Below are positions 18,984 through 20,522 of a DNA stretch of 64,000 nt, piece after piece (positions within the stretch are counted from its first letter, which is position 1; each line of letters starts with the position of its first letter). The position numbers and the translations under genes are program-made. The notes beneath the pieces are model-generated. The model worked only from the letters and a program-made list of their open reading frames with translations, had not been told where the DNA came from and made no database searches. Source of the DNA: Escherichia coli (lineage in GTDB: Bacteria > Pseudomonadota > Gammaproteobacteria > Enterobacterales > Enterobacteriaceae); the NCBI RefSeq assembly GCF_003334785.1, contig NZ_QOWV01000003.1. One strand, written 5' to 3'.

Positions 18984-20522
18984 TTATTCTGAAGCAAGAA
19001 ATTTGTCGAGATAAGGTACAACATAAGGAACAGAAGTCTGGAATATACCATTTTCAATCCAGTAAAGGGTGTTTGCCCCTGGGCGTAAATTAAAGGCGGT
19101 GAGATATGCATCAGCTGCTTCCCGGTTCATCCCCTTCATTTCATAAACCTTGCCAAGCAACACATAATTTAGCCAGGACATTTCAAGATCAATGCCAGTA
19201 TTTATCGCCTGGTAAGACTCATCTGTTTTACCTTTTACCAGAGCACTGACCGCTTTTATTTGATATATAATGGACAGGTTGTTCAATTCCGGCAGTGTAA
19301 CAATGTTATCTATTTCTGTGTTCAGTGCTGCTAATTGTTTTTCATCTAAAGGATGTTGAGAATGGCGCACGATATCAACTAATGCTTTTTCTGCTCTCGC
19401 GTAGGTAAATTCTGGGGATGATTGAACAATCTCACCTAATAATTCACTGGCACGGTTCAATGATTTATCATCGCCATGCAGTAAATAATCATGTGCCTGA
19501 TAAAAATTAGTTAATAACGCACCACGATGCGGCAAAATTTTCTGGAGCGTCTCCTGCATTCGTTGTGGCCACGGTTGGTTTAACGCTTTTGATAAACTCT
19601 CCAGTAAATCATTTTGAATCGCCAGCTGATTACCGTTAGTGATGACATAACGTTTATCCAGCATGGTTGAACCATCTGCATTGTCTACCAATTTTATCGA
19701 CATAAAGCATTGTTGAGCACGGTATTGGCGCTGATTAACAAACGCAATAGATAATGTTTTACCGGAACTGCTCGGTTCATCAATGTTGTAGTTGATTTTG
19801 TCATGCACCATAAAGGTGGAGAAGGTGTTAAGTGATGTCGCCACCAAATCACCCACGCCTATCGCGTAAGAGAGCTGATACGGGGAACTCCAGCTGTTAC
19901 AACTTTTATTTACCATATTAATGTCAATATCGCGTGGATTGAGCAAAATACGCGATTTGCTCATAGGAAGACGTGTATCAAGACTTGAAAACGCTACCAG
20001 TGCTACACAGATACCTAACGACAACAGGAAAAAAAACCATACCCAAAAGGTAGTGAATCGTTTGCTTTTAACTGGGGATTGTTCAGGTGGCGTTGCGGTG
20101 TTTTGAATGTTAAGACTGTGGGAGGGAGAATCTGTGGCAGGAACCGCCTCTGGTATAGGGGGAGGCGAAGATAGCATTATTTCCTCTCCCTCTTCTTCGC
20201 TGTACCAGATAACCGGCACCATTAATTTATAGCCGCGCTTTGGTACAGTAGCGATATAGACAGGACTATCTTCATCATTATCTTTTAATGACTTACGTAG
20301 TTCTGAGATACTCTGCGTCACAACGTGATTGGTGACAATACTTCTCTTCCAGACATTATCGATAAGTTCATCCCTGCTAAGTACTTCGCCACTGTGTTGA
20401 GCAAAGAAAACCAGAAGATCGATTAATCTCGGCTCAAGGGTAAGTTGACGCCCATTGCGGCTAATTTGGTTTATGGACGGAGTAACAAGCCATTCGCCAA
20501 CGCGAACTACAGGTTGTTGCAT
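18984..20522 (-). CDS. cadC: membrane-integrated ToxR-like transcriptional activator CadC
   Basis: 512-aa ORF MQQPVVRVGEWLVTPSINQISRNGRQLTLEPRLIDLL...; winged-helix N-terminus, single TM, periplasmic sensor; PPPIP motif. Confidence 0.95.
   Translation of the reverse strand: MQQPVVRVGEWLVTPSINQISRNGRQLTLEPRLIDLLVFFAQHSGEVLSRDELIDNVWKRSIVTNHVVTQSISELRKSLKDNDEDSPVYIATVPKRGYKLMVPVIWYSEEEGEEIMLSSPPPIPEAVPATDSPSHSLNIQNTATPPEQSPVKSKRFTTFWVWFFFLLSLGICVALVAFSSLDTRLPMSKSRILLNPRDIDINMVNKSCNSWSSPYQLSYAIGVGDLVATSLNTFSTFMVHDKINYNIDEPSSSGKTLSIAFVNQRQYRAQQCFMSIKLVDNADGSTMLDKRYVITNGNQLAIQNDLLESLSKALNQPWPQRMQETLQKILPHRGALLTNFYQAHDYLLHGDDKSLNRASELLGEIVQSSPEFTYARAEKALVDIVRHSQHPLDEKQLAALNTEIDNIVTLPELNNLSIIYQIKAVSALVKGKTDESYQAINTGIDLEMSWLNYVLLGKVYEMKGMNREAADAYLTAFNLRPGANTLYWIENGIFQTSVPYVVPYLDKFLASE

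Follow-up and report, generated by a model that had tools for sequence, protein, structure and literature searches.

The proline triplet in CadC, as encoded in the DNA analysed here (a stretch of 64,000 nt from an Escherichia coli contig, NZ_QOWV01000003.1, hereafter the window), is best explained by the published EF-P-dependent polyproline pause that caps the copy number of this regulator, a reading to which we assign a probability of around 95 %. The PPPIP motif of CadC is a textbook case already known from the literature, so that the finding is not new, and nothing contradicting the mechanism was seen. The motif with its codons and its place in CadC was observed in the window, as were the neighbouring genes and efp, epmA and epmB; EF-P dependence, copy numbers and deregulation are taken from the literature. 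The gene and its target operon are arranged as follows:

18984–20522, minus strand: cadC, 512 aa, membrane-integrated pH-sensing activator of cadBA (NCBIfam NF007540, CadC equivalog)
17285–18619, minus strand: cadB, antiporter for cadaverine/lysine, part of the target operon (NF007754 equivalog; 920 bits, cutoff 585)
15058–17205, minus strand: cadA, inducible lysine decarboxylase, also part of the target operon (NF011929; 1628 bits, cutoff 1056)

The deduced product of cadC matched profile NF007540 along residues 1–509 with 752.6 bits (cutoff, 400) and showed the expected architecture, with an N-terminal winged-helix DNA-binding domain, a single transmembrane segment and a periplasmic sensor domain; its precomputed Pfam domains are PF00486 and PF18500. 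The DNA-binding domain is covered by PDB structure 5ju7 (residues 2–107) and the periplasmic sensor by 3ly7 (residues 188–512), and the hydrophobic stretch FWVWFFFLLSLGICVALVAF sits between the two domains. The gene is 100 % identical to cadC of complete E. coli genomes and is present in 5256 of 5426 genomes. The preliminary description of this DNA had placed cadBA next to cadC, and both genes indeed lie immediately downstream, on the same strand and above their profile cutoffs; the ORF of cadA reaches 17244, and its start was set at 17205 because the NF011929 alignment starts at Met14. Gene dtpD is situated beyond cadBA, and dicD/yjdC on the other flank of cadC, and we take the ORF at 21933–23711 to be dsbD from its size and position.

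The locus also shows signs of rearrangement in other strains. No cadC match was found in 170 of the 5426 E. coli genomes, and in several complete E. coli genomes (H1–H5 and L001) the gene is interrupted by IS1; loss of the Cad regulator is thus recurrent within E. coli. The interval from cadC to dicD contains a tRNA-Phe (GAA) gene, at 21139–21214 on the minus strand, and strain L001 contains a fragment of a tyrosine recombinase between this tRNA gene and cadC, which suggests that the tRNA gene near cadC is an integration site for islands.

The motif is contained in a short, proline-rich region of the protein with these features:

20151–20165, minus strand: PPPIP, CadC residues 120–124, codons CCT CCC CCT ATA CCA (by translation and script mapping)
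20085–20090, minus strand: another run of consecutive prolines, T-P145-P146-E, also within the linker
20049–20201, minus strand: cytoplasmic linker of CadC, residues 108–158 (9 of these 51 are proline), joining the DNA-binding domain to the transmembrane helix

Translation and coordinate mapping showed that the position originally given for PPPIP was right to the base. The motif contains three consecutive in-frame prolines, P120-P121-P122, the sequence that characterizes a PPP stall motif, in the codon context TCT TCG CCT CCC CCT ATA CCA GAG GCG. It sits in the cytoplasmic linker, outside both solved structures, in a region reported to be intrinsically disordered and to make no contact with the DNA-binding domain or with DNA. 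The gene, the residues, the codons (TCG CCU CCC CCU AUA CCA, which include those named by Krafczyk et al., 2021) and the neighbourhood are the same as for the published E. coli CadC motif, with no difference, and the window carries the reference cadC allele.

We examined how often such a motif would be expected by chance. When the whole of CadC (28 prolines in 512 residues) was shuffled, PPP was obtained in 6.7 % of the shuffles and PPPxP in 0.3 %, and these values were 17 % and 2.3 %, respectively, when only the linker (residues 108–158) was shuffled; additionally, PPP occurs in 2 of the 52 large non-overlapping ORFs of the window, cadC and amiB. On sequence, then, PPPIP is uncommon, yet statistically unremarkable given the local composition, and only weakly suggestive of more than chance. 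Its significance comes from published experiments and not from sequence statistics.

The rescue of polyproline-stalled ribosomes by EF-P was discovered via the CadC motif (Ude et al., 2013, Science 339:82), in a study whose results we take from later papers, mostly by the same groups. As related in these papers, the activity of PcadBA is low without efp, whereas a CadC variant in which PPPIP is changed to AAAIS is EF-P-independent and increases from 3–5 to 11–14 copies per cell, upsetting the CadC:LysP balance and leaving PcadBA aberrantly active. The efp deletion and proline substitution proposed in the preliminary description had therefore already been done, with the outcome that it predicted, and its claim that EF-P acts through CadC on the lysine-dependent acid response is supported by published work on this very motif. 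Cells lacking efp show low expression of PcadBA::lacZ, which functional EF-P brings back; this is now a standard assay, and the motif by which EF-P function was discovered still serves as the in vivo reporter of EF-P activity. XPPP-LacZ reporters in the context of the CadC N-terminus are likewise EF-P-dependent, and the EF-P paralogue EfpL also affects the Cad response, with a similar pattern; in a paper on EF-P and transcription-translation coupling (PMC5021804), CadC occurs in a reference only.

CadC had also been described as a low-copy membrane regulator, which is consistent with published estimates of 1–3, 3–5 or ≤4 molecules per cell, depending on the paper. According to a review, the Cad system needs translational regulation limiting CadC to 3–5 molecules per cell, and ribosomes stall at two consecutive-proline motifs in the unstructured linker, being relieved by EF-P only; PPPIP and T-P145-P146-E agree with these two motifs. 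The low copy number underlies heterogeneous activation of the Cad system, and raising it leads to less heterogeneity and to a growth cost.

Synonymous changes in the motif are also reported to alter the response. The codons CCU-P120, CCC-P121 and CCU-P122, following Ser TCG, tune the pause (Krafczyk et al., 2021, Commun Biol 4:589), and silent recoding to 3xCCG raised the output of PcadBA threefold and turned cadBA on at 100 µM lysine, a concentration that the same study calls insufficient for pH neutralization; recoding to 3xCCA, 3xCCC or 3xCCU caused subtle changes only. Since the 3xCCG change is silent at the protein level, the translational effect can be separated from any effect on protein structure.

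The factors that act in trans are encoded in the same window:

34287–34853, plus strand: efp, elongation factor P, the trans-acting reliever of the stall (TIGR00038 equivalog; 253.6 bits, cutoff 185.8)
33217–34245, minus strand: epmB, enzyme of EF-P beta-lysylation, lysine 2,3-aminomutase-like (TIGR03821 equivalog; 533.9 bits, cutoff 369.3)
41231–42208, plus strand: epmA, EF-P--(R)-beta-lysine ligase (NF006828 equivalog; 604 bits, cutoff 264)

The ORF of epmA is listed from 41186, and the NF006828 profile starts at its residue 16. The three genes are situated 13–21 kb from cadC and all exceed their curated NCBIfam cutoffs, indicating that a complete route for EF-P beta-lysylation is encoded; we attach no regulatory meaning to their proximity to cadC.

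In the published mechanism, which we favor, a ribosome reaching Pro120–Pro122 in the disordered linker pauses because of slow Pro-Pro peptide-bond formation, and beta-lysylated EF-P relieves the pause only partly. The PPPIP motif, its slow codons CCU-CCC-CCU and the second PP motif together form a translational brake that leaves few CadC molecules per cell. These few copies stay in balance with the inhibitory co-sensor LysP, a balance by which induction of cadBA requires both low pH and enough lysine. Without EF-P there is too little CadC and cadBA stays uninduced, whereas without the motif there is too much CadC and the lysine requirement is loosened. The brake would have been selected for in the E. 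coli lineage.

Two points of the preliminary description need qualification, namely that the pause is strong and that EF-P status sets CadC abundance. The EF-P dependence of the pause is published, but the serine at position −1 belongs, in systematic XPPP reporters, to the group favoring peptide-bond formation, with weaker stalling, and codon choice sets the pause as well; the strength of the native motif is tuned by both residue context and codons. Likewise, the low activity of PcadBA without efp supports an influence of EF-P on CadC abundance, but fits a constitutive brake, because EF-P is abundant (ca. 40,000 copies per cell) and polyproline stalling, in the words of PMC5811046, “cannot be fully compensated” by EF-P. 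Together, abundance and incomplete compensation imply that the motif is a built-in brake on copy number, and it is best seen as constitutive rather than as a readout of changing EF-P status.

A CadC homologue search yielded 114 near-full-length proteins, which were aligned; after dropping two fusion proteins, 112 representatives were analysed. PPP at the column of residues 120–122 was present in only 6 of them, all of the E. coli type (P0001–P0006). At this position, CadC reads PPALP in E. fergusonii and SPTSIP in E. albertii (a partial sequence), and two Escherichia alleles of 84 % identity read LPSVP and LPPVP, while Raoultella has mostly SPLAP or PPLAP and Klebsiella oxytoca PAETA. In contrast, proline richness is general, with a mean of 18.7 % in the linker across the 112 representatives; P121 and P124 are the commonest residues of their columns (85/112 and 89/112, respectively). 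PPP appears somewhere in the linker of 19 representatives, at varying positions, and at least one PP in 86, the remaining 26 having none. Counts of exact 60-mers showed that 4639 of 5234 E. coli genomes share the 60 nt around the motif, and a further exact 60-mer, with a wobble variant of P122 (CCT to CCC at 20157, giving CCU-CCC-CCC), was found in 151 of 5233 genomes; this variant lengthens the run of C to six and is synonymous in CadC. As the published 3xCCC and 3xCCU constructs changed the output only subtly, the variant should leave CadC output unaltered.

By these alignments and counts, the PPP triplet belongs to the E. coli lineage, where it is almost fixed in the species and placed inside a generally proline-rich linker, and it is not shared by Cad regulation in general. 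Because the triplet is limited to CadC of the E. coli type, control by EF-P is probably specific to the Cad system of this lineage. Many orthologues have PP only, and 26 of the 112 lack any PP in the linker, and EF-P dependence can therefore not be assumed for their Cad systems.

These patterns bear on the possibility that the prolines are mainly structural, forming a stiff or polyproline-II spacer that places the DNA-binding domains, with EF-P dependence as an incidental cost. The linker is reported to be necessary for transduction of the periplasmic signal and for positioning the two DNA-binding domains, and its proline richness is kept in orthologues, with P121 and P124 the most frequent residues at their columns; however, the consecutive triplet itself is unconserved, and the purely synonymous 3xCCG recoding already deregulates the response (Krafczyk et al., 2021). 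We thus consider a mainly structural role quite unlikely as the explanation of the motif.

The scattered occurrence of PPP and PP among the 112 representatives resembles drift, and shuffles of the linker alone yield PPP 17 % of the time, as would be expected if the triplet had arisen neutrally in a disordered linker that is rich in proline and evolves fast, with an EF-P dependence that is real but unselected. Nevertheless, removal of the motif or faster codons result in a mis-timed response, at lysine too low for neutralization, a raised CadC copy number brings a growth disadvantage, and none of the alleles examined uses the fast codon CCG in the triplet. The near-invariance within E. coli points in the same direction but carries little weight, given the youth of the species. 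A neutral origin is therefore unlikely, and we prefer the selected translational brake.

Some of the homologs carried unusual linkers. A cluster of 119 member sequences (representative, P0013), reading SSPP-LYQRRF, was considered as a natural loss of PPP and was rejected as an artefact of long-read assembly. In a DNA alignment, this locus (L008:401–1792) showed a 1-nt deletion inside CCTCCCCCT, in the C5 run, and a second deletion, of 2 nt within a T8 run, that brings the frame back; the equivalent window positions are about 20162 and about 20035, respectively. Since seven indel positions, all in homopolymers, occur in the same 2.2-kb locus, this frameshift allele is probably an assembly error. 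The divergent alleles P0004 and P0009 contain a linker segment, VLTFKTPQ, that corresponds to the linker DNA of E. coli read in another frame, which suggests either that the disordered linker tolerates frameshifted stretches or that errors are present in these sequences as well. Finally, two proteins of 490 aa (P0079 and P0080) contain the C-terminal two thirds of CadC (99–100 % identity) joined to an unrelated N-terminus with PF16168, and may be fusions or miscalled genes.

The bases of the motif are also part of an overlapping reading frame on the opposite strand:

20107–20232, plus strand: laoB, antisense overlapping ORF of 41 aa, intact in the ORF listing and contained inside cadC

This is a continuous ORF of 41 codons in antisense frame −2 inside cadC (ECs5115), as published for laoB, and it corresponds to the C-terminal 29 residues of the product that RefSeq gives for laoB; RefSeq/PGAP annotates laoB (“L-arginine responsive protein”) here only where IS1 breaks cadC. 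LaoB was described in antisense frame −2 of the “CadC-like” ECs5115 (Hucker et al., 2018, PMC5810103), with evidence from RNAseq, RIBOseq and competitive growth, and an arginine-dependent phenotype, in E. coli O157:H7 Sakai only. The same paper restricts LaoB to Escherichia/Shigella, reports a homologue in E. albertii, and describes a transcript that starts 289 bp upstream from the laoB start codon and ends 155 bp downstream of the stop, and that consequently runs antisense to the cadC linker region.

The LaoB residues G-I-G-G-G are encoded by GGT ATA GGG GGA GGC (20152–20166), the reverse complement of the codons for PPPIP with an offset of 1 nt. Third codon positions thus fall on the same bases in both frames, so that the Gly codons of LaoB leave the choice of Pro codon in CadC unconstrained. 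A synonymous recoding such as 3xCCG should thus be silent in LaoB, whereas PPPIP to AAAIS would turn GIGGG into DIAAA, if Ala is encoded by GCN and Ser by TCN. The natural change of P122 from CCT to CCC would replace the Ile of LaoB by Met, and its presence in 151 genomes suggests that LaoB is not tightly constrained at the motif.

The intact ORF overlapping the motif codon for codon, the published RNAseq, RIBOseq and phenotype of laoB, and a range in Escherichia/Shigella roughly equal to that of PPP are all compatible with a sequence kept for the Gly-Ile-Gly-Gly-Gly core of LaoB, the prolines of CadC being a by-product of antisense coding. However, E. fergusonii has an open laoB-like frame together with PPALP in CadC, E. 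albertii has a reported LaoB homologue and SPTSIP, the coinciding third positions leave the Pro codon free, and the natural Ile to Met change argues against a tight constraint on LaoB, making this explanation extremely improbable. A strict co-occurrence of laoB and PPP was considered and rejected, because it was only partial across five alleles; one of the alleles with 84 % identity, for instance, combines a stop in the laoB frame with LPSVP in CadC. A dual-coding stall motif, in which the PPP brake and laoB arose together and influence each other, might act, for example, through an antisense RNA on an already poorly translated cadC message, or through mutants of the AAAIS type altering LaoB as well; we consider this very unlikely. 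The terms “proline” and “EF-P” are absent from the laoB paper (PMC5810103), our literature search found no paper joining laoB, CadC and EF-P, and we saw no evidence for a functional link between laoB and the CadC stall, which is unlikely.

The constitutive brake on CadC can be compared with other systems. EnvZ and CpxA, cited in PMC6023141 and PMC5811046, are examples of other EF-P-dependent polyproline proteins of E. coli in which copy number is tuned, and resemble CadC in being membrane-bound sensors or regulators with consecutive prolines and for which stoichiometry matters; unlike them, CadC is a one-component, ToxR-like regulator whose motif is located in the disordered linker on the cytoplasmic side. 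The path from motif through copy number to phenotype has been demonstrated quantitatively for CadC, an example of how few codons can fix the copy number of a regulator and thereby the logic of a stress response. The CadC proteins of Raoultella, Klebsiella, E. fergusonii and E. albertii share the domain architecture and the proline-rich linker, but have no PPP at the homologous position. Finding the motif again from raw sequence amounts to recognizing a known regulatory feature and opens no new question; the confinement of the triplet to CadC of the E. coli type and the bases that it shares with antisense laoB are modest additions.

The other large ORF of the window with PPP, amiB (54526–55878; NCBIfam equivalog, 977 bits), encodes a run of eight consecutive prolines at 54928–54951 on the plus strand. 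AmiB is unmentioned in Starosta et al. (2014); this run makes it an obvious candidate EF-P client.
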